Below, one piece after another: positions 1,381 to 12,994 of a DNA stretch of 64,000 nucleotides. Origin of the DNA: Thermodesulfobacteriota bacterium. GTDB lineage: Bacteria > Desulfobacterota_D > UBA1144 > Nemesobacterales > JAJCZQ01. Position numbers and translations under genes: made by a program. The stretch covers positions 1,093,561 to 1,157,560 of the forward strand of contig OZ244044.1 of NCBI GenBank assembly GCA_965215275.1. The letters are read 5' to 3'. The notes beneath the pieces were generated by a model. That model saw only the letters and a program-made list of their open reading frames with translations, was not told the DNA's origin and made no database searches. Position 1 is the stretch's first letter, and every line of letters starts with the position of its first letter.

Positions 1381-2941
1381 GGGAATTATATACTCTGTTA
1401 GACAAAGACAGGCAAATAGCTTTGATAGTGCTGTAAAATTAGGGAATTATATATAGATATGGATAGTGAAGGAAGTGTGATCAGAAAGACGAGAGTAGAC
1501 CTCAGGGCGGTTAAGTTGGATCCGTCTGCTCATAAGAAACTGGAATCTATGTTAAACCAGCTTACCTATCTTTATAACCGAGCTCGTGAAGAAAGGATAA
1601 GATCATATGATAAATATGAGAAACTGATGAAATGGGGTTTATCAGAAAAGAGATTTAAGACGTATTTCTATCCCCACTGGAAGTCTGGACTTTCTTATAA
1701 TAAAGGTAATACAGTTAAACATATAGACAAGGTATATATAGCTCTTAACAGGGTTAGAAGTGAAGTCCGACCTTGTAACGACCCGTTAAACTGGAGAGAG
1801 TTATCAGAAAAAGAAATAGGAAAGAAGTCGATCAGTTACGAAGATCAGGCAAGATCACTGACGGAAATAAGGAACGACCTTTTACTGTCTGATGAGTTTA
1901 GTAAGGTTGACGCTCAAGCGCAACAGCGGACGTTACAAAGACTGGATAAGGCTTATAAAGAATATCTAAAAGGGATACGTGGTCGTCCGAGATATAAGAA
2001 CAGTAGCAGAAAGATAAAAAGTTTTGAAACTTACCAATGGAGTAGAGTTAAGAAACAAGACAGAAGAACTTCCTTGTCCGTAAAAGGAGCAGGCAGGATG
2101 AGTTTCAAAGGCAGGATACCGGAAGGAACTAAATACATAAGGATAGTAAGAACTGCTTTAAGAGTAGAGATACAGTTTGTATATGAAACAGTTGCAGGAG
2201 TGGACAGAGGGTCAGACAGACCGATAGGGATAGATCTCGGAGTGAAGAACAGAATTACCTTATCGGATGGAACTTTCTATAAAGGAACAGAAATAGACAG
2301 GAAGGAACTTAAAAGAAAGCAAAGAGCATTAAGCAGAGCTGAAAAAGGATCTAACAACAGAAACAAGAAGAAAACAGCTTATGCCAAAGAACGTGCAAGG
2401 ACCACTGAAAGGGAACATAATAAAATACATGAATTAACTACAGGGATAGTAAAGGGTCATGGTAATCATTTTATAGTAGAAGATCTGAAGTTAAAGAACA
2501 TGACAAAGTCCGCTAAGGGGACATTGAAAGATCCTGGCAAGAAAGTAAAGCAGAAATCGGGATTGAACAGGTCTATACAGGAGCAGCAATTGGGAAAGGT
2601 CATTAGTCAGCTTACTTACAAGGTTGAGAGCACTGGAGGTAAGATAACTAAAGTTCCATCCCAATACACAAGCCAGACCTGTTCTGCATGCGGATACGTA
2701 GCTAAAAATAACAGAAAAGGAGAGTTATTTAAGTGCATGTCCTGTGGTTATACAGGCCATGCTGACTTAAACGCAGCTAATAACGTTCTCAAAAGAGGTT
2801 TATTCTTTTTGTCGGGTGGGAATAAGGACGAGAGTCTCCCGATGCAAGCTGGGAACATGATATCAAAAGAGAACGGGGTCAGAGGGACTCTGCTTGCAGA
2901 ACAGTATATTTAGTATTTGTATAATAGAGTATATAATTCCC
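1381..2941 (+). mobile_element. TnpB-carrying insertion element bounded by 27-28 bp imperfect terminal inverted repeats (gggaattatatactct...)
   Basis: Left end 1381-1408 is gggaattatatactctgttagacaaaga. The reverse complement of 2914-2941 is gggaattatatactctattatacaaata. They match at 25/28 positions, and the first 16 nt are identical. Confidence 0.7.
1459..2913 (+). CDS. tnpB: TnpB (IS605 OrfB / IS1341-type RNA-guided nuclease-like transposon protein) with a C-terminal Zn-finger
   Basis: 484 aa. Central RuvC-like region GIDLGVKN and C-terminal CSACGY...CMSCGY Zn-ribbon, typical of the OrfB_IS605 / OrfB_Zn_ribbon family. Confidence 0.85.
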   Translation: MDSEGSVIRKTRVDLRAVKLDPSAHKKLESMLNQLTYLYNRAREERIRSYDKYEKLMKWGLSEKRFKTYFYPHWKSGLSYNKGNTVKHIDKVYIALNRVRSEVRPCNDPLNWRELSEKEIGKKSISYEDQARSLTEIRNDLLLSDEFSKVDAQAQQRTLQRLDKAYKEYLKGIRGRPRYKNSSRKIKSFETYQWSRVKKQDRRTSLSVKGAGRMSFKGRIPEGTKYIRIVRTALRVEIQFVYETVAGVDRGSDRPIGIDLGVKNRITLSDGTFYKGTEIDRKELKRKQRALSRAEKGSNNRNKKKTAYAKERARTTEREHNKIHELTTGIVKGHGNHFIVEDLKLKNMTKSAKGTLKDPGKKVKQKSGLNRSIQEQQLGKVISQLTYKVESTGGKITKVPSQYTSQTCSACGYVAKNNRKGELFKCMSCGYTGHADLNAANNVLKRGLFFLSGGNKDESLPMQAGNMISKENGVRGTLLAEQYI

Positions 2942-3087
2942 TTGCTTAATGACAAGGTTCAACGAACTTACGGTCTGAAAGGGATAAGGTCCGAGTAAAC
3001 AGTTCATCTGCTGAAGCAAATTGCTACAAATGTCCTTTATTTATAATTTAACTAAGGTGTACTTTTGTAACGGTTTTAGGAATTCCG

Positions 3088-4665: not shown

Positions 4666-4823
4666 AATATATAAAAGCAGATAAACAGTGTTCAGTCAGC
4701 ACAAGCCGAATTATTTAATTTGGGAATTATATACAATAGTGACGAAGCCTCCAATAAATAGTTGACAAACTATAGATTTGTCATTATTACAGGTAAGAAA
4801 ATTAAATAACTGGAGGAAGTTAT

Positions 4824-5765
4824 ATGTCAAAGAAAGCACCTGGGAAATCATACAGGAAAGGGATATCGTTAGTAAAGTTATTCAGGAAATTCCCTTCTGA
4901 TGCTGTTGCAGAGGAATGGTTTGTAAAACAGAGGTGGGGAAAGGAACCCGTATGTCCGTATTGCGGGACAAGAAACGTTCAGACCGGGACTGGTCATAAG
5001 ACAATGCCGTACAGGTACAGGGAAAAAGGACGTTCGAAATGGTTCAGTGCAAGGAGCAGGACAGTTATGCAGTCTTCTAATATCAGGTATCAGGCTTGGG
5101 CAGTGGCAATATATCTTTTTGCCACGTCATTAAAGGGAGTATCAAGTATGAAACTGCATAGAGATCTGGATATTACGCATAGGTCAGCATGGCATTTATC
5201 GCATCGTATCAGAGAGGCGTGGAACAGAGAAGAACTGCAAGTGTTTACAGGCTCCGTGGAGGCAGATGAGACGTTTACAGGTGGAAAGGAGAGAAACAAG
5301 CATAACAACAGGCGTAGTCATACACGAGGACCTGGAGGGAAGTCCATTGTTGCAGGAATGAAGAACAGAGAGACAAACAGGGTAACAGCACAACCGGTTT
5401 CTGAACGTAGTAAAGAGGAAATACAGGGTTTTACAGTTAAGAACGCAGGTAGTGGAGTAAAAACATATACCGATGATCATAAAAGCTATACAGGGTTGCC
5501 TTATGAGCATGAGAGCGTGGATCATAGTGTAAGGGAGTACGTTAAAGAGCAGGCACATGTAAACGGAGTGGGATCGTTCCGGGCAATGTTAAAAAGAGGA
5601 TATACCGGCACGTACCACAGAATGAGTAAAAAGCATTTAAATCGTTATGTAAATGAGTTTTCGGGGAGGCATAATATAAGAAGACTGGACACGGAAGATC
5701 AGATGGGAACAACAGCAAGGGCAATGTATGGAAAGACCTTGCCTTATAAAGAACTGATAAGGTAA
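4824..5765 (+). CDS. ISXO2-like / IS1595-family DDE transposase
   Basis: 313 aa with an N-terminal Zn-finger (CPYCGT) and an ADETFTGGKERNKH motif, characteristic of ISXO2-like transposases. Confidence 0.85.
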   Translation: MSKKAPGKSYRKGISLVKLFRKFPSDAVAEEWFVKQRWGKEPVCPYCGTRNVQTGTGHKTMPYRYREKGRSKWFSARSRTVMQSSNIRYQAWAVAIYLFATSLKGVSSMKLHRDLDITHRSAWHLSHRIREAWNREELQVFTGSVEADETFTGGKERNKHNNRRSHTRGPGGKSIVAGMKNRETNRVTAQPVSERSKEEIQGFTVKNAGSGVKTYTDDHKSYTGLPYEHESVDHSVREYVKEQAHVNGVGSFRAMLKRGYTGTYHRMSKKHLNRYVNEFSGRHNIRRLDTEDQMGTTARAMYGKTLPYKELIR

Positions 5766-5817
5766 TATGAATAATGTTACAGGATAAAAAACAGACCAAA
5801 AAACAAAGAAACTTGCA

Positions 5818-6006
5818 ATGACGAACAGGAAAAAAACAATAGAGATCTTGCCAGGCAGTTATGAACCGACAGAAGAAGAGAAAGAGCATCCGTTTTCTAT
5901 TGATACAACTCCGCAAAAGTCAGCAAAAGCTATCCTCCAGCCTGTCAACGTTAAAAAGAAGGATGTAAAGAAACACGTTGCTGAACGTTCAAAAAACAGG
6001 AAATGA
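5818..6006 (+). CDS. small Lys/Glu-rich passenger ORF inside the IS1595 element (hypothetical)
   Basis: 62-aa ORF between the transposase stop and IRR. No recognisable domain. Confidence 0.25.
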   Translation: MTNRKKTIEILPGSYEPTEEEKEHPFSIDTTPQKSAKAILQPVNVKKKDVKKHVAERSKNRK

Positions 6007-6103
6007 TCCAGGTTTCGTCACTATTGTATATAATTCCCATTTAATTTAACTGTCTCAAATACTTTTATTTTTGATATAACTTACTGAAATAATTTAGTTT
6101 TTA

Positions 6104-6625
6104 TTGACAAAATGGTTATTATATAATATACTTTTATACATACTAATAATGAAACTTTTTAACAGACTGAATAAAAAAGTCACTAAGTTTTTGTCAAAAA
6201 AAGTCCTATTCAAAAGGTTTATCTCTAAAAAAAGAGATAAAAAAGACATATGTCAATTAATCCCTAATATAATAAATGCTGATAATAATTGCGCTCTTAT
6301 TGCACTTCATCTTTTGTTTCCAAAAATTCCGGAAGATAAAATATTAGACGCATTTTACCATTGTTGCGAAAAGTGGCCAAATGAGGGAGTTACAAACAAA
6401 GAGTTTAATATTGCTCTTAAATTTTTAAACCTGGACAAAAAAGTTTGTTATCACGGAAATGAAACAATTGTTCAATTACTATTAGCACATAAAGATAGAG
6501 CTTTTATAAGTTTAGTACACGGACACTTTTTGGTTATTTCGTTCGGTAGAATTTTAGAGTTTTTCAGTTGTTATTGGACTAACTGTAAAGAAGCAAAAGT
6601 CTATTGTTATTGGGAAAAACTTTAG
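6104..6625 (+). CDS. hypothetical protein; predicted papain-fold Cys peptidase (deubiquitinase-like Cys-box and His-box)
   Basis: 173 aa. NNCALIALHLL resembles a USP/papain Cys-box. HGHFLVISF resembles the USP His-box GHY. Lies in an AT-rich islet. Assignment by eye only. Confidence 0.35.
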   Translation: MTKWLLYNILLYILIMKLFNRLNKKVTKFLSKKVLFKRFISKKRDKKDICQLIPNIINADNNCALIALHLLFPKIPEDKILDAFYHCCEKWPNEGVTNKEFNIALKFLNLDKKVCYHGNETIVQLLLAHKDRAFISLVHGHFLVISFGRILEFFSCYWTNCKEAKVYCYWEKL

Positions 6626-7287
6626 CAAGGGGCATAGTTTCTGTATTTTTTATGACATTTGCGAAACTCTTTAGACTCTGGATTTTGCAAATGATGTAAC
6701 AGCATCATAAATCCAACTGAAGTTGCCTCCATTATTATTGCTGTATATGAACCGTAATCGCCATAACCATCATCGCCGGCGTTTTCTAAACTTAGAGGCT
6801 TTGGGTTCCAAAAGCAGGTATATTCTGAAAAGTGTTTTTTGATACCAACACCAATAGAAAGCGTTTTAATGATTTCTCCTGCTCTGCCAACTTCATTGCA
6901 CAACTCGCCACAAGTAATACGAGCATCATTGGTATCTGGAACATTAATAACAATCTGAGAATCACTTACAGTATCCCTCGCCTTTATAGCTTCTGAAGGA
7001 ATGTCTGGAGTGTGTCTTTTCAGATGATGGGGTATGATCTTGATTTCAATTTCTGAGTTAATAAGGTTTGTTAATTTATCTTTTAAAACATAAACTTTAT
7101 ATTTACCAATATCAGTCCGTATGAAATTTCCTCTGTTTAGGTTGCTTATATCAACTTTATCCCCATCTATAAGAGCTAAATGTTTAGCCCCAGTCCTTAC
7201 TAACATTTCAGCAAATACACTTCCAACGGCACCGCAACCAACAATACAAAATTTGGGAACTATATAGGAAAGTTGACAAAATCCCAT
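6622..7287 (-). CDS. ThiF/MoeB/E1-like adenylyltransferase (minimal E1)
   Basis: 221 aa. Rossmann motif VGCGAVGS followed by DGDKVDISNLNRG, matching the E1 hallmark DxDxVxxSNLNRQ. No adjacent thiS/moaD. Confidence 0.7.
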   Translation of the reverse strand: MGFCQLSYIVPKFCIVGCGAVGSVFAEMLVRTGAKHLALIDGDKVDISNLNRGNFIRTDIGKYKVYVLKDKLTNLINSEIEIKIIPHHLKRHTPDIPSEAIKARDTVSDSQIVINVPDTNDARITCGELCNEVGRAGEIIKTLSIGVGIKKHFSEYTCFWNPKPLSLENAGDDGYGDYGSYTAIIMEATSVGFMMLLHHLQNPESKEFRKCHKKYRNYAPC

Positions 7288-7295
7288 AACTCCCT

Positions 7296-7481
7296 TTAAT
7301 CATTAACTTCTTTTATAAGAGGATTTCCTTTAGGATCTACTACTAATTTAAACCTTTTTTTCAGTTCTTCTTTGGTTGGTTTTTTAGGTCGTTTATGCGG
7401 GATCGAACCCATTTTTAACAACATCTTTGATGCTTTATCTATTGCTTGTTCTTTTTCTTTTTTTGCTTTTAATCTTTTCAT
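7296..7481 (-). CDS. small basic protein (61 aa, Lys-rich), hypothetical
   Basis: ORF immediately upstream of the E1-like gene on the same strand. Highly basic. No GG terminus. Confidence 0.3.
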   Translation of the reverse strand: MKRLKAKKEKEQAIDKASKMLLKMGSIPHKRPKKPTKEELKKRFKLVVDPKGNPLIKEVND

Positions 7482-7535
7482 TATAAAACAAATAACTATT
7501 AAATATGATCAAGACTCCTCCATCATATGTCATCA

Positions 7536-8481
7536 TTACTGTGTTAACTCTTCAAAGGTTATAGTTTTTCCTGCCATATTTCTAAAAAGTGCATCCAGTT
7601 GATCTTGCGTGTCTGTTTTTACATTACCTTCATTTAACCTGAACGAAAACTCATCTATATATTTCTTAAGATGTTTTTTATTCCAATTGTGATATACACC
7701 TTTGTATCCACCCTTTAATACTGCCCAGACACTTTCAACCCCGTTTGTAGAAGCCATCGTATTTACAAACTCTTTTGCCCAATGATCGACCGTCTTATGC
7801 TCAAATTCTCTATCTGATAAACCTCTGTATCCTCTATGCTCATCTGTGTATATAATGGAACCTTCTGCAATGTTCTCTTTTATCTCTCTTGAAAGAGTTT
7901 CACTCTCTCTGTTCCGGATCACTTTTGCTCTGGTTCTGCCTCCCTTCTCCCTCATACCTGATATACAGACCTTTCCTGCAACTCCTCTGCCTTTATTTCG
8001 TTTCTTGCTCCCGTGCTTGTTCTTCTCAAGTCCACCTATGTATGTCTCGTCTATCTCTACTTCTCCTTTCAATAATACTTCCATATTACTTCCACAAGCA
8101 AGTCGCAACCTATGCAGCATATACCAGGCTGTTGTCTGGGTTACTTCTAACTCCTTGCTCAACTGTAAACTGCTTATTCCCTTTCGGGAAGTCATAAGCA
8201 AATATCCTGCAAATATCCACTTCCGCATACTCAAGTGGAGTGCCTGTTAAAGCAGTAAAATAACTCCGGCATTCCTTACACCAATACCTGCCATATGGTT
8301 TCTTCTGTCGTGTTATTTTCTTGCTGCTTCCACACTTTGTGCAGTTTATTTTCTTTCCCCAGCGTAATCCCTCAAAATACTTAATTACAGATTCTTTTGC
8401 AGGATACTTTTCCATTAACCCAAATAAACTGACCGTCTTCACATGTCTTTTTTTCATACAATAAATATGATCTTCTATCAT
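7536..8481 (-). pseudogene. IS1595-family (ISXO2-like) transposase disrupted by a frameshift; a second, divergent IS copy
   Basis: The N-terminal Zn-finger part (8110-8481) and the DDE part with GEVEIDETYIGGLEKNKH (7536-8234) sit in different frames and overlap at 8110-8234. Homologous to the intact 4824-5765 transposase. Confidence 0.75.
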
Positions 8482-8569
8482 CTCTTGTCAACTCTTGTGT
8501 CAATATATCCCCTGTTTTGTCAACTTCCCTATATAGTTCCCTAAGAAAGGAAAGAGAAAGACGTTATAC

Positions 8570-8599
8570 TTGACATTCGTTCATAATACCTGGTAAAAT
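8570..8599 (+). promoter_or_regulatory. sigma70-type promoter (TTGACA, 18-nt spacer, TAAAAT) for subtilase-family paralog 1
   Basis: TTGACA at 8570-8575 and TAAAAT at 8594-8599. The same block is conserved upstream of paralogs 2 and 3. Confidence 0.6.
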
Positions 8600-8645
8600 A
8601 AAAGAGTTATGAAAAGTTCAAACATAAAAACACGTAGTTCCATTA

Positions 8646-8657
8646 CCCCCCCCCCCC
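8646..8657 (+). repeat. homopolymeric C12 tract in the 5' UTR of paralog 1
   Basis: 12 consecutive C at 8646-8657. Paralog 2 has C11 at the equivalent site. Confidence 0.9.
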
Positions 8658-8703
8658 GTGTATACCTGACCTTTCAGCCTGGTATAAATATTTTGTAAGA
8701 ACA

Positions 8704-11700
8704 ATGTTTAAGATAATCCCCCCCCCATCTAAGTTATTACTAACCTTAGTCTTTATTCTACTGAGTATCATGGTCATAGCTGCAAAAGGGCAGAGCAGCC
8801 TGGAAGAAACATTATCTGAATGCAGAGATATCAGTGCAGGTCTGGAAGATCCGTTATACGGATGTCAGTGGCATCTGAATAACACTGGACAGTTAAGTAT
8901 TTCCGGAAAGAGAATAACAGCAGGAGAAGATATTAACGCAGAGGGAGTATGGAACGAAGAGGTATATGGTACTGGAATTAACGTAGCAGTTGTAAGTAAT
9001 GGAATAGACCTTTCACATGAGGACCTTTCTGCTAAGGTCCGTTCGGAACTGAACTACAACTTTTCTGGAAAAGATAATTCAGACAGTTCAGAGTTAAGTG
9101 GTACACGAGCGGCAGGAGTAACGGCAGCGGCTGGATATAACGGACTGGGAACAAGAGGAGTTGCACCTGGTGCGAGTATATACAGTAATAAGTTAACAGG
9201 AGATCTCAGGGAATCAGACGCAATGGAAGCAGGGGAAGCAATGGTGCGTAATAAAGAAATAACTGCAGTATCCGTCAGCGACCGGGGATCTGAGGACGGA
9301 GTTTTTCTTCAGGGTGCTTCGGCTGAGTGGGAAGAGGGAGTGGAAGAGGGTATAAGGGAAGGGTTTTACGGCAGGGGAATATTTTACGTCCTGGGAGCAG
9401 GGGACGGACATGAGAGCGGAGATCAGGCTAATTTTTCTGAATATTCCAATTACTACGGGGTAACAGCGGTGTGTTCAACGGACGGTTCTGGAAAGAAGAG
9501 CTTGTTTTCAGAAGAGGGAGTGAATCTGTGGGTATGTGCGCCTGGTCCTGATATAGCGACCACTGATAGCGACGACGATCACGCCGTGACGTCCGGAACT
9601 GTCCTTTCAGTTTCACGGGTCGCAGGTGTGGCGGCACTGCTGAGAGAGGTAAACGAAGACCTGAGCTGGAGGGATATAAAGCTTATACTTGCGGGTTCGG
9701 CACGGCAGAACGACGTTCCTGACATTAGCTGGGAGACTGGAGCGGTAAAATACGGTTCCGACGTGGAAAGATACAGATACAGTTCGAAATACGGTTTTGG
9801 CGTGGTGGACGCGGAGGCGGCCGCAGAGCTTGCCGGAAGCTGGAAAGGAGTGGGAGAAATGAGGACCGTTACAGCTTCCTCGGATAATGAACTGACGATC
9901 CCTGATGGAGAAGGAGAGGCGGACGGGGTCCTTACCTCCAGACTTATGATTTCGGACCTGGAGGAAATATTTACGGAGTTCGTTGAGGTAGAACTCGTTC
10001 TCTCGTGTGACTGCCTGCAGGACCTCAATATACGGATAACCTCTCCTTCCGGGACAGTATCGGAACTTGTGCGGGAGTCTGCCAGTGAGTTTGTAAGGGG
10101 ATCTTCGAATGAAGAAAACGACTGCGTCAGTTACCTGGGGAAAAAACATCGTTTCGGTTCGGCAAGACACCTCGGGGAAGACCCTTCCGGAGAATGGACC
10201 CTTAAGATATATAATACTGCTTCCGGAGATGAAGAAGATACAGAAAATACCGTTACCCTGCACTCATGGAGCATCAGGGTATACGGGCACGGGAAGGAAG
10301 ATACTTTAACGGACTTTGGCGGGGAGATCACTGCCAAGGCTTTAACTTTGGGTAATGTTCCTGGTGGTAGGCTGACCTGGACGCAACATAAGCTGGTAAA
10401 CGCAAGGTTATTCGAGGCAGCCGGAGGCAGGCCGCCGTATACTTACAGTTTAGCTCCTTTACCTCCTGGATTGAATTTTAACGGAACCACCAGAATTATA
10501 AACGGGAGACCGACCGCTGCAGGTGACACCGACGTTCAGTATACGGCAAGAGACGCAAATAACGATACGGCACGGAGTGACTTCGTTATAAGGATAACGG
10601 CGAACGCCGCGCCGGTTTTTGGCAGCAAGACGGTTGCTGCTCAGGTGTACACGGCAAGGAAAGCAATAGAACCATTGGAACTTCCCGAGGCAACGGGAGG
10701 GGATGGAACCTTGACTTACAATATAAGTGGTAACGTCAGGGGTATAGGGTTGAACTTTAACCGTAACACAAGGATACTGAGCGGAATGCCCACCAGTGTT
10801 ACGCCTGGTATTACAGCCGTTTATACCGCCACTGACGCAGATGGAGATACTGCCGAGCTGAGGTTCAATATACGGGTAAGACATCAGAACGACATACCGA
10901 CCTTCGGCAGTCAGATGGTAGATGATCAGAATTGGGTTAACGGCAGTGCGGTAAGGCTAACGCTGCCTCGTGCAAGAAACGGGAATGGAACGTTAACCTA
11001 CGGTATAACCCCTGCTTTGCCTGATGGACTGGACTTTGATCCTGGTACCAGAGTGCTGAGCGGAACACCGACCGCTGCGGCACCTGAGAACACTTACACG
11101 TATACGGTAACGGACAGTGATAACGATATTCATGAAAGTGATTCTGACAGTCTGACCTTCAGGATAAGAATAAAAGCTGCAACTGAAGTCCCAAGTTTCG
11201 GCAGTCAGACGGTAGGTAATAAGATTTATACAGCAGGGGTTCAAATATCACCATTCACGTTACCTCTTGCAACGCAAGGAACTGGAATTACACTCAGGTT
11301 AACCCCTCGTTTACCTTCCGGATTGAATTTTAACCATGCTACCGGAGAGATAAGTGGAATACCGACCACTGCAACGTCTGAGACTGATTATACATGGAGA
11401 GCAACGGACAGAGACGGATATACGGCTGAGATAACGTTCAGTATAACGATAAGAGCAGCAGACACGGAACCGACCTTCGGCGGTGAGACGACGGATGATC
11501 AGGAATACGTGGCAGGAAGTCAGATAACGCCGGTAACGCTGCCAGTGGCAACGGGAGGAAATGCTCCGTTAGCCTACGGTATAACCCCTGATCTGCCTGC
11601 TGGACTGGACTTTGATGAAAACGCCCGAGTGCTGAGCGGAACACCTACTACTGCAACGAGTAAGAATACCTATACATATACTGTAACGGACGAAGATGGA

Positions 11701-12483
11701 GACACGGATGAAATTGAGTTCGGTATCACCGTGTCGGAGGACACAATGCCGACCTTCGACGGTGAGACGATAGAAGACAAGGTGACCGTTAACGGCGTTA
11801 CAGAAGTAATGGAAACGCTGCCTCTTGCAACAGGAGGGAACGGAACGCTGACTTACAGTTTAACTGATGCCGGTTCAAATGCTTTGAATTTATTTGCCGG
11901 ACTGGACTGGGATGACAACACCCGGGTGCTGAGCGGAACACCCAATATCGGTTCAGCGCTGCTTCATCTGCTTCCTCGAACCGAGACTTACACGTGGACG
12001 GTAACGGACGAAGATGGAGATACAGCAGAGATAACGTTCAGTATAGTAATAGAAGAAGACAGCATGCCGGAATTCAGTGTGACGACGATAGAAGATCAGG
12101 TGTACAGGGGGAGATCAATAATGTTGCCGGTAGCAACGGGAGGGAATGCACCGTTAGTATACAGTATAACGCCTCCCTTACCTCCTGTATTGAGATTGAA
12201 CGAAAACACCGGGGTAATAAGCGGGACGTCCGTCCGTGCGTCATCTGCTGCTACTTACAGGTATACGGTAACGGACAGGGACGGAGACATGAAAGAGTTG
12301 ACCTTCAGGTTCAGTGCAGCGGCTCCGCCACCGACAAGTAGTAATTCAGGCGGAGGTGGAGGATGTGCTGTATCAGATCAGAGCATCGCCATTTTTGATA
12401 TTCTCGGAGTAATGGCATGTCTGATACTTATACCCGTGTCTGTAATTATCAGAAGGAAAAGAAGATCTCAGATAAAGACTTAG
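8704..12483 (+). CDS. large secreted kexin/subtilisin-like (S8) domain protein. Includes a P-domain, about 7-8 He_PIG (putative Ig / cadherin-like) repeats, and a C-terminal Gly-run/Cys–TM–basic sorting signal. Catalytic triad apparently substituted (pseudoprotease).
   Basis: 1259 aa. Signal peptide MFKIIPPPSKLLLTLVFILLSIMVIAAKG. Subtilase motifs are degenerate: VAVVSNGID (Asp→Ser), SGTRAAG (aligned with HGTRCAG of furin, His→Ser), TSGTVLS (aligned with GTS, Ser→Val). P-domain-like ITSPSGTVSEL...GEWTLKIYN. Repeats LPxATGGNGTLTY...LPxGLxFDxxTRVLSGTPT...TYTVTDxDGDTAE. C-terminus GGGGGCAVS...LILIPVSVII-RRKRRSQIKT. Confidence 0.8.
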   Translation: MFKIIPPPSKLLLTLVFILLSIMVIAAKGQSSLEETLSECRDISAGLEDPLYGCQWHLNNTGQLSISGKRITAGEDINAEGVWNEEVYGTGINVAVVSNGIDLSHEDLSAKVRSELNYNFSGKDNSDSSELSGTRAAGVTAAAGYNGLGTRGVAPGASIYSNKLTGDLRESDAMEAGEAMVRNKEITAVSVSDRGSEDGVFLQGASAEWEEGVEEGIREGFYGRGIFYVLGAGDGHESGDQANFSEYSNYYGVTAVCSTDGSGKKSLFSEEGVNLWVCAPGPDIATTDSDDDHAVTSGTVLSVSRVAGVAALLREVNEDLSWRDIKLILAGSARQNDVPDISWETGAVKYGSDVERYRYSSKYGFGVVDAEAAAELAGSWKGVGEMRTVTASSDNELTIPDGEGEADGVLTSRLMISDLEEIFTEFVEVELVLSCDCLQDLNIRITSPSGTVSELVRESASEFVRGSSNEENDCVSYLGKKHRFGSARHLGEDPSGEWTLKIYNTASGDEEDTENTVTLHSWSIRVYGHGKEDTLTDFGGEITAKALTLGNVPGGRLTWTQHKLVNARLFEAAGGRPPYTYSLAPLPPGLNFNGTTRIINGRPTAAGDTDVQYTARDANNDTARSDFVIRITANAAPVFGSKTVAAQVYTARKAIEPLELPEATGGDGTLTYNISGNVRGIGLNFNRNTRILSGMPTSVTPGITAVYTATDADGDTAELRFNIRVRHQNDIPTFGSQMVDDQNWVNGSAVRLTLPRARNGNGTLTYGITPALPDGLDFDPGTRVLSGTPTAAAPENTYTYTVTDSDNDIHESDSDSLTFRIRIKAATEVPSFGSQTVGNKIYTAGVQISPFTLPLATQGTGITLRLTPRLPSGLNFNHATGEISGIPTTATSETDYTWRATDRDGYTAEITFSITIRAADTEPTFGGETTDDQEYVAGSQITPVTLPVATGGNAPLAYGITPDLPAGLDFDENARVLSGTPTTATSKNTYTYTVTDEDGDTDEIEFGITVSEDTMPTFDGETIEDKVTVNGVTEVMETLPLATGGNGTLTYSLTDAGSNALNLFAGLDWDDNTRVLSGTPNIGSALLHLLPRTETYTWTVTDEDGDTAEITFSIVIEEDSMPEFSVTTIEDQVYRGRSIMLPVATGGNAPLVYSITPPLPPVLRLNENTGVISGTSVRASSAATYRYTVTDRDGDMKELTFRFSAAAPPPTSSNSGGGGGCAVSDQSIAIFDILGVMACLILIPVSVIIRRKRRSQIKT
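8718..8726 (+). repeat. homopolymeric C9 tract inside codons 5-8 (PPP) of paralog 1
   Basis: ATG TTT AAG ATA ATC CCC CCC CCA; the downstream frame is in-phase (ON). Confidence 0.9.
10330..12300 (+). repeat. array of about 95-aa He_PIG/cadherin-like tandem protein repeats within paralog 1
   Basis: Recurrent motif LP(V/L)ATGGN(G/A)(T/P)LTYxITPxLPxGLxFDxxTRVLSGTPT...YTYTVTDxDGDTxE seen at least 7 times. Confidence 0.7.
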
Positions 12484-12994
12484 TAATGAGGTCCTTTCAA
12501 AGGTATTGAACTAACCAAGATATTTCCCATCAGAATATTTGCTGGTTGCTTACGGGAGAAGAAGTGGTATCTCCATAGTTAAAGTCCTCTTTTTCTTTTG
12601 ATCTTCAATGTTCTTATTACCACAAGGTTTTCCACCCGATACAAATATGATACTGTTAAAAACGTCTTTTTTATTCATTTGGCGGAGTTAGCTATATAAT
12701 TTCCTAAATAATGTTTACTGTAAGCTATTCAAGGCAGAAATCAGTCCACAAATTACAGTTCCAATTATAAACACGCCTAGCCGGAGTGGAAAATCTTAAA
12801 CAAATTGTGGAAAAAACATGTTGTAATAGTTTGCAAAGTGATAGATTCATCACCTTCTCAACCCCTACATCAAAAACCAAAAACACAATAAAGGTCACTT
12901 ATAGGAACGAACCTGTTTTTGACATATACCTGATGATCTTCCTGAAACTAAAAACTTAAATCCTGATATAAACCATCAAGGTCCATTACAACTC

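Follow-up and report, generated by a model that had tools for sequence, protein, structure and literature searches.

A tnpB gene in a putative non-autonomous insertion sequence bounded by IS1595-family ends

TnpB, the ancestor of Cas12, is usually viewed as a helper of the scarlessly excising IS605 and IS607 transposons. The locus described here raises the question of what kind of mobile element can carry a tnpB gene between terminal inverted repeats (TIRs). It lies at positions 1381-2941 of the window, i.e. the whole 64,000-nucleotide stretch analysed (contig OZ244044.1 of a Thermodesulfobacteriota bacterium), and a first-pass annotation of the window had proposed that tnpB rides there in a non-autonomous, IS1595-derived TIR element that could be mobilised in trans by the DDE transposase of an adjacent element. 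We find the first part of this proposal well supported by the end profile, 8-bp target site duplications (TSDs), boundaries that fall at the TIR tips, and the lack of any IS200/IS605 hallmark in the tnpB element. Positions 1381-2941 very probably represent a non-autonomous insertion sequence (IS) with IS1595-family ends, whose cargo is tnpB plus a 3' RNA scaffold and whose transposase would be supplied in trans.

The element measures 1,561 bp and contains a single gene, which encodes an intact TnpB of 484 amino acids (aa). Its left TIR (IS1595 type; 1381-1408, plus strand; GGGAATTATATACTCTGTTAGACAAAGA) and right TIR (2914-2941, minus strand; GGGAATTATATACTCTATTATACAAATA, given as the reverse complement) agree at 25 of 28 nt, as had been described, and a repeat search pairs these arms as an inverted repeat of 29 nt with 90% complementarity. 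The interior of the TIR reads ...TCTGTTAGACAAA. At both ends the 13-nt tip, GGGAATTATATAC, is identical to the two tips borne by the neighbouring element at 4722-6038 (IS-A), whose 25-nt TIRs are perfect; the annotation had also recorded this match. With up to two mismatches allowed, this tip is found ten times in the window compared to 1.7 expected occurrences, and none of 100 shuffled sequences reached ten.

Assignment of the ends to a family was based on a comparison with elements that encode their own transposase. A metagenome scan, for which the query was an alignment of the two transposases found in the window, identified 80 IS1595 loci with 36-66% identity to IS-A, nearly all of which have TIRs beginning GGGAnyTATATAC. 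The end profile was a position weight matrix derived from 62 distinct arms of the 39 transposase-bearing IS1595 elements with both ends on the contig. These elements range from 1.6 to 4 kb, and 31 of the 39 are flanked by perfect 8-bp TSDs that are AT-rich and show no flanking preference; TSDs of 8 bp are known for the IS1595 family (PMC8101967). When the window was scanned with this profile, the left end of the tnpB element ranked first (27.0 bits) and its right end second (24.3 bits), above the ends of IS-A, and the best non-TIR site in 128 kb (the window, both strands) scored 11.8 bits. Interior positions 12-26 of the profile add 5.4-13.5 bits for the tnpB arms of the window clade and 8.1 bits for the left TIR of the window. 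Several transposase-bearing elements have the TIR GGGAATTATATACGAAACTAGACAAA, to which this left TIR is identical at 19 of 24 positions. By this comparison the ends of the tnpB element are assigned to the subgroup with GGGAnyTATATAC tips and 8-bp TSDs. The ISfinder end consensus of the ISNwi1 subgroup, ggnnatTAT, agrees with these tips.

Further copies of the termini are present elsewhere, so the likeness is not confined to one locus. Elements with GGGAnyTATAT tips and tnpB as their only open reading frame (ORF) occupy nine distinct sites, represent at least three TnpB lineages, measure 1.23-1.56 kb, and at none of these sites contain a transposase. Their hosts include a probable Thermodesulfobacteriota genome and metagenome-assembled genomes (MAGs) of Rhodothermales/Bacteroidota. 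A protein search with the window TnpB returned one cluster of 96% identity and another of 63-67%; one protein (P0121) is 100% identical to the window TnpB. Exact-match look-ups of the window TnpB, P0002, P0003 and P0121 returned no record. Since a longest contig of 1,990,023 bp is given for each of P0121, P0122, P0123, P0002, P0003, P0126, P0127 and P0128, a single chromosome in the genome of the window appears to hold eight copies in three subfamilies, in which close paralogues share 95-98% identity. A scan of genome contigs with the TnpB protein found relatives of 28-45% identity only. Subfamily 2 was examined at two sites, one between pyrF and priA (L037/L038) and one beside coaBC (L039/L041), and both have TIRs of the form GGGAYTTATATACTTTAGTAC... 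More distantly related are five elements of 1.36 kb in Rhodothermales/Bacteroidota MAGs (L008, L009, L011, L012 and L013), which are tnpB-only, encode a TnpB of approximately 32-34% identity, and are bounded by GGGAATTATATGGGATAGTTGAA-type TIRs; two copies at contig ends (L022 and L023) have the same tips. A 1,226-bp element (L248:2463-3688) carries P0008, a protein of 46-48% identity from the sister clade of the window protein, between degenerate TIRs of the form GGGAWTTA...

Perfect 8-bp TSDs were found at six of these nine sites, namely TAAATAAT (L039), TATACTTT (L248), TTATTCTA (L008), TTATAATA (L009), TTAATTTG (L012) and TTTAATCA (L013), and at one more site the two copies agree at seven of eight positions (ATCCATCA/ATCTATCA, L011). 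As judged from these junctions, the relatives of the window element integrate into AT-rich sites and produce 8-bp duplications of variable sequence, the signature of DDE staggered cuts, and the tnpB-element family is multi-copy and spans several phyla. Similarity among copies stops exactly at the GGG and CCC tips. The tnpB unit as part of a larger IS was considered and rejected, given that the boundaries of its paralogues coincide with the tips.

As none of the tnpB elements encodes a transposase, mobilisation would have to occur in trans; with tnpB as its sole ORF, the window element would not be an autonomous member of IS1595 but a derivative that borrows the enzyme of one. A 258-bp MITE (a miniature transposable element with inverted repeats; L245:5252-5509), nested in a transposase-bearing IS1595 element, has IS1595-type tips and an 8-bp TSD (AAAACAAA), and therefore shows this subgroup to have mobile non-autonomous derivatives. 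Candidate autonomous IS1595 elements in the window would be two within 6 kb, one of them intact: in addition to the single IS1595 neighbour noted earlier, our analysis added another member of the IS1595 family, IS-B, whose transposase is frameshifted (7255-8541, minus strand; TIR GGGAACTATATAGGAAAGTTGAC). The TIRs of IS-B read GGGAACTATATAGG(A/G)AAGTTGACAAAA, with tips GGGAACTATATAG, and are identical at 20 of 24 positions to a Rhodothermales-type tnpB TIR. The case for mobilisation in trans by an IS1595-type enzyme does not extend to adjacent IS-A as the specific partner. Positions 4720-12868 of the window (8.15 kb, including both IS1595 elements) are missing in the sister assemblies L001 and L036. 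Because sister strains with the tnpB element do not have this insertion, the adjacency of tnpB and IS-A is recent and incidental. IS-A matches the tnpB element only at the tip and is not found in sister strains, so another element could equally be the partner.

Several observations weigh against the interpretation preferred here. The case for trans mobilisation by an IS1595 DDE enzyme comes from ends and TSDs; none of the 80 IS1595 loci contains tnpB, no element with both genes was found, and none of the tnpB elements yielded an empty site. Arms were gathered with a regular expression that partly dictated profile positions 1-11 (position 12 loosely), and the tnpB TIR shares with IS-A the 13-nt tip and only 16-17 of 24 positions overall. 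No TSD flanks the window copy itself or the L037 site. Support for the omega RNA discussed below is comparative only: single-sequence folding z-scores are weak and not significant (-0.55 to -1.66), and searches of the 3' region against Rfam gave no match at either gathering or permissive thresholds. Finally, a 2026 review asks what TnpB could gain in DDE transposons (PMC13565253), and the matching question, how a DDE element would profit from TnpB, applies here as well.

The gene itself (1459-2913, plus strand) encodes a protein with Pfam matches to OrfB_IS605 (PF01385, 4.5e-12) and Cas12f1-like_TNB (PF07282, 9e-20), of which residues 113-453 align to ISDra2 TnpB (8h1j). The RuvC residues D259, E341 and D436 and the zinc-finger cysteines C408, C411, C426 and C429 are unchanged, and the D-E-D triad and CCCC finger are intact in every TIR-type TnpB examined. 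An N-terminal insertion of approximately 70 aa (residues ~54-121; window 1618-1821) is common to the three subfamilies of this genome, is missing in the sister clade (P0008) and in ISDra2 TnpB, and has no Pfam match. Differences among orthologues of the gene amount to 41-47 nt in 1,452, and the ratio of nonsynonymous to synonymous substitution rates (dN/dS) is 0.22-0.24 (0.24 compared to L001), a pattern indicative of purifying selection, and the TnpB cargo of the element is apparently active.

These orthologues also date the insertion. L001, L036 and L040 have the tnpB element at the same site as the window, between argB and OEP, so that with four assemblies sharing it the insertion is older than their divergence. 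The flanking argB is 78% identical to proteins attributed to Thermodesulfobacteriota MAGs. Directly after the right TIR the three sister assemblies have TATTATTAT (L001:7484-7492), 9 nt that are missing at 2941/2942 of the window, and this polymorphism sits exactly at the right-TIR junction, where a guide would start and the right copy of the TSD would be expected. The flanking repeat of the orthologues is TATATTAT / TAT(T)ATTAT; as TATTATTAT equals the left-flank 8-mer TATATTAT plus one extra T, it probably represents a decayed TSD. We therefore read the window copy as a fixed insertion of some age, its ends slightly decayed and its right TSD lost.

This age brings up the best surviving alternative, that the window copy is no longer mobile and is a fixed gene, possibly exapted and kept for a host function. 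The shared argB-OEP site in four assemblies and the dN/dS of 0.24 would fit such a gene, as would the imperfect TIRs and the lost right TSD. However, TnpBs reported as exapted are as a rule inactivated (PMC10691335), while the D-E-D triad is intact here; orthologues show no change in either TIR tip or in the 3' RNA-like region; and the 95-98% identity of paralogues within this genome points to fairly recent copying. We consider exaptation unlikely; moreover, it is a reading of what one copy is now and does not conflict with an origin of that copy as a non-autonomous IS1595-type element.

A second alternative accepts a DDE-type TIR transposon but attributes it to a transposase outside IS1595, the likeness of the ends being convergent and another enzyme producing the 8-bp TSDs. 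No transposase gene is ever found inside the tnpB elements, and the Rhodothermales-type and L248 ends score at most 12.4 bits, having the tip alone in common with the main profile, both of which could be expected if the enzyme were a different one. Yet the ends of the window clade fit the IS1595 profile over 26 nt, equal to or better than those of bona fide IS1595 elements, the Rhodothermales-type ends find their closer counterpart in IS-B, which encodes an IS1595 transposase, and TSD length and AT-rich composition are the same in tnpB-only and IS1595 elements. This explanation appears even less probable than exaptation. Least tenable, and in our view highly improbable, is an ordinary IS1341-group (IS200/IS605) tnpB-only element moved as single-stranded DNA by the Y1 transposase TnpA with incidental inverted repeats, for although tnpB is the only gene, as in that group, and TnpB is classically tied to IS200/IS605 and IS607 (PMC13565253), IS200/IS605 elements have no TIRs or TSDs and insert beside a fixed 4-5-nt motif (PMC13565253), whereas the tnpB-only elements have 24-30-nt TIRs, variable 8-bp TSDs and no common motif in their left flanks, and 17 related TnpB loci without such TIRs gave no match to the IS1595 end profile.

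The element would also carry a second functional component at its 3' end. The last 154 nt of the tnpB ORF show zero substitutions between orthologues, and the 3' ~130 nt are 83-85% identical to subfamily 2, among the highest values along the element. In subfamily 2 this conserved stretch lies beyond the stop codon, and the motif GTCGGGTGGGA...TCCCGATGCAAGCTG is kept in two frames, as S-G-G-N... in subfamily 1 and as C-R-V-G... in subfamily 2. Because nucleotide conservation crosses two reading frames, we regard the region as a candidate omega RNA scaffold; in these comparisons it behaves like a nucleic acid with a function of its own and not like coding sequence. In three lineages a hairpin of 6-8 bp, of unrelated sequence, lies just 5' of GUCGGG and precedes a GUCGG/CCGAC stem whose loop varies. 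Consensus folds contain six pairs changed on both sides in the window clade and five in Rhodothermales; the three-lineage MAFFT alignment mis-registers the first hairpin, and no pair counts were taken from it. The region probably encodes an omega RNA whose scaffold (2810-2941, plus strand, 5' boundary approximate) overlaps the 3' end of tnpB and finishes at the right-TIR tip, with the flank serving as guide, an arrangement that would match published DDE-associated TnpBs and Fanzors. The flank that would template the guide (2942-2961, plus strand) is without the 9 nt of the sister assemblies. No metagenome match was found for a conserved 24-mer of this RNA-like region. In the Rhodothermales elements (L008-L013) the tnpB frame crosses the RNA-like region and stops at a TAA within the right TIR, 5 nt from the tip (ORF end ~5077).

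Upstream of tnpB, a promoter-like site, TTGATA-17-AATTAT, may be assigned to 1422-1450 (plus strand), just 5' of the ATG; it scores 9 of 12, which is not above shuffle expectation, and in the paralogue L037 the corresponding position reads TTAATA-17-TATAAT. The -10-like hexamer of this site is overlapped by an additional copy of the TIR tip. This copy had been reported upstream of the ATG and is indeed present, but starts at 1442 rather than 1443 and comprises the tip only, not a full TIR arm (1442-1454, plus strand; GGGAATTATATAT, one mismatch to the 13-nt tip). It also occurs in the orthologues L001, L036 and L040. A role as a functional inner TIR was rejected, because its interior does not fit the TIR profile (it is not among the profile matches above 8 bits) and it is missing in subfamily 2.

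Taken together, these features allow the following life cycle to be proposed. An IS1595-family transposase from an autonomous element elsewhere in the genome would recognise the common ends and insert the tnpB element at AT-rich sites via 8-bp staggered cuts. The tnpB gene would then be transcribed from the left end, possibly from the weak promoter-like site, and the omega RNA would be cut from the 3' end of the transcript, with its scaffold finishing at the right-TIR tip and its guide read from the flank, that is, from the TSD and the next bases. As in IS605 and IS607, TnpB with this RNA could cut the allele that carries the flank without the element, and the break at the empty allele would lead to recombinational restoration or homing, favouring retention. 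The occupied site would be spared because the TIR tip (...CCC) takes the place of the target-adjacent motif (TAM).

How such an element compares with known systems depends on which feature is considered. TnpBs associated with DDE transposases were reported in 2023 as six branches (DDE-1 to DDE-6) with inverted ends, and included solo TnpBs with ends nearly identical to those of transposase-bearing relatives, implying trans mobilisation (Altae-Tran et al. 2023, PMC10691335). According to the 2026 review, the DDE families with TnpB are ISL2, IS630 and IS1031, and the prokaryotic association is rare (PMC13565253). The window element resembles the DDE-associated TnpBs in having tnpB within inverted terminal repeats and a tnpB 3' end less than 250 bp from one end (PMC10691335), and differs from these branches in that no DDE transposase gene lies within the element and that its family, IS1595, is named in the main text of neither PMC10691335 nor PMC13565253. 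The coupling of tnpB to a DDE transposon, which the first-pass annotation regarded as unusual, consequently has more precedent than that annotation allowed. A literature search for TnpB with IS1595 or ISXO2, which covered neither the 2023 supplement nor ISfinder, returned nothing relevant. As no element with both genes exists among those found, surveys based on gene neighbourhood would miss the association.

With the IS1341 group the window element shares tnpB as the only gene, the same protein family and an RNA encoded at the 3' end; that group has subterminal hairpins, no TIRs or TSDs and a fixed target motif (PMC13565253), unlike the TIR- and TSD-bearing family described here. With IS1595 elements carrying passenger genes and with MITEs it shares GGGAnyTATATAC tips, 8-bp AT-rich TSDs and tolerance of cargo, and it differs from the cargo-bearing elements in that the transposase gene is wholly replaced by tnpB and its RNA. 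The nearest eukaryotic parallels are Fanzor1 and Fanzor2* elements, in which a TnpB-family nuclease is likewise the sole cargo of a non-autonomous TIR/TSD element, as in the Fanzor1-only element of the Spodoptera frugiperda ascovirus (PMC10711439). Fanzor scaffolds run through the TIR (PMC10711439), and the same is predicted from sequence for the window element, which differs in its bacterial host and its TnpB of ordinary length. IS1595 is the prokaryotic relative of eukaryotic Merlin, whose TIRs have a terminal GG (PMC8101967); Merlin is not mentioned at all in the 2026 OMEGA review. What appears to be new here is the different DDE family, a relationship that in the elements examined is trans-only, and a guide that would begin with a variable 8-bp TSD; being variable, the TSD would belong to the guide and not to the scaffold.

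A broader hypothesis, which we put forward tentatively and consider less likely than not, is that solo TnpB/omega-RNA modules and IS1595 transposases form a widespread, trans-only partnership that has arisen more than once and is a bacterial counterpart, possibly a forerunner, of Fanzors in TIR transposons, with the first 8 nt of the guide being the fresh TSD and a short motif just upstream of it the TAM. In a rough neighbour-joining tree, which is weak evidence, the Rhodothermales group does not come out as sister to the window group, and capture may accordingly have taken place more than once. If TnpBs with IS1595-type ends, never accompanied by a transposase, do occur in several phyla, (i) TnpB-DDE associations would be under-counted, (ii) compact bacterial examples would allow tests of how a guide RNA accommodates a variable TSD, and (iii) a bacterial model would exist for the transposon-capture step behind eukaryotic Fanzors. 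For annotation, such 'IS605 OrfB' genes would have boundaries definable from TIRs and TSDs.

Certain details of the insertion sites and neighbouring elements remain to be described. On the left flank, the TSD has GGG or AGG as its 5' neighbouring triplet in four of the five insertions from Rhodothermales, the junctions being GGGG/TTATTCTA, TGGG/TTATAATA, TAGG/TTAATTTG and AGGG/TTTAATCA; no GG(G) bias before the TSD was seen at 31 transposase-bearing IS1595 insertions. This GG(G) triplet may be a TAM, the sample being small and without statistics. The same Rhodothermaceae MAG that contains the L012 element also holds the end of a further tnpB subfamily (L012:1-513), in which the right TIR, GGGAATTATATTCCATACTAACAATATGG, has the same tip and a different interior. 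Scans of viral contigs with the TIR patterns gave single chance matches only, one of them inside a phage ORF, and five plasmid IS1595 relatives (30-38% identity) had no clear TIRs by script and were uninformative.

Within the window, IS-A (4722-6038, plus strand) is an autonomous IS1595-family element that encodes a 313-aa transposase (4824-5765; DDE_Tnp_IS1595, 1.3e-30), whose zinc-ribbon match is weak (22.8 bits, below the Pfam cut-off of 25.4), and a second ORF of 62 aa (5818-6006). The 8.15-kb segment that includes IS-A and IS-B also carries a 173-aa ORF without assignment, a ThiF-like gene, a repeat-rich ORF of 1,259 aa (8704-12483) and, near its end, a solo IS1595-type TIR arm (12679-12704, minus strand, 18.0 bits), and may represent an island assembled by IS1595 elements. 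The direct repeat on either side of IS-A, ATTTAATTT (4713-4721 and 6039-6047), measures 9 bp, compared to the 8 bp usual for the family, and the inverted repeat of IS-A can be extended by one base (T...A).

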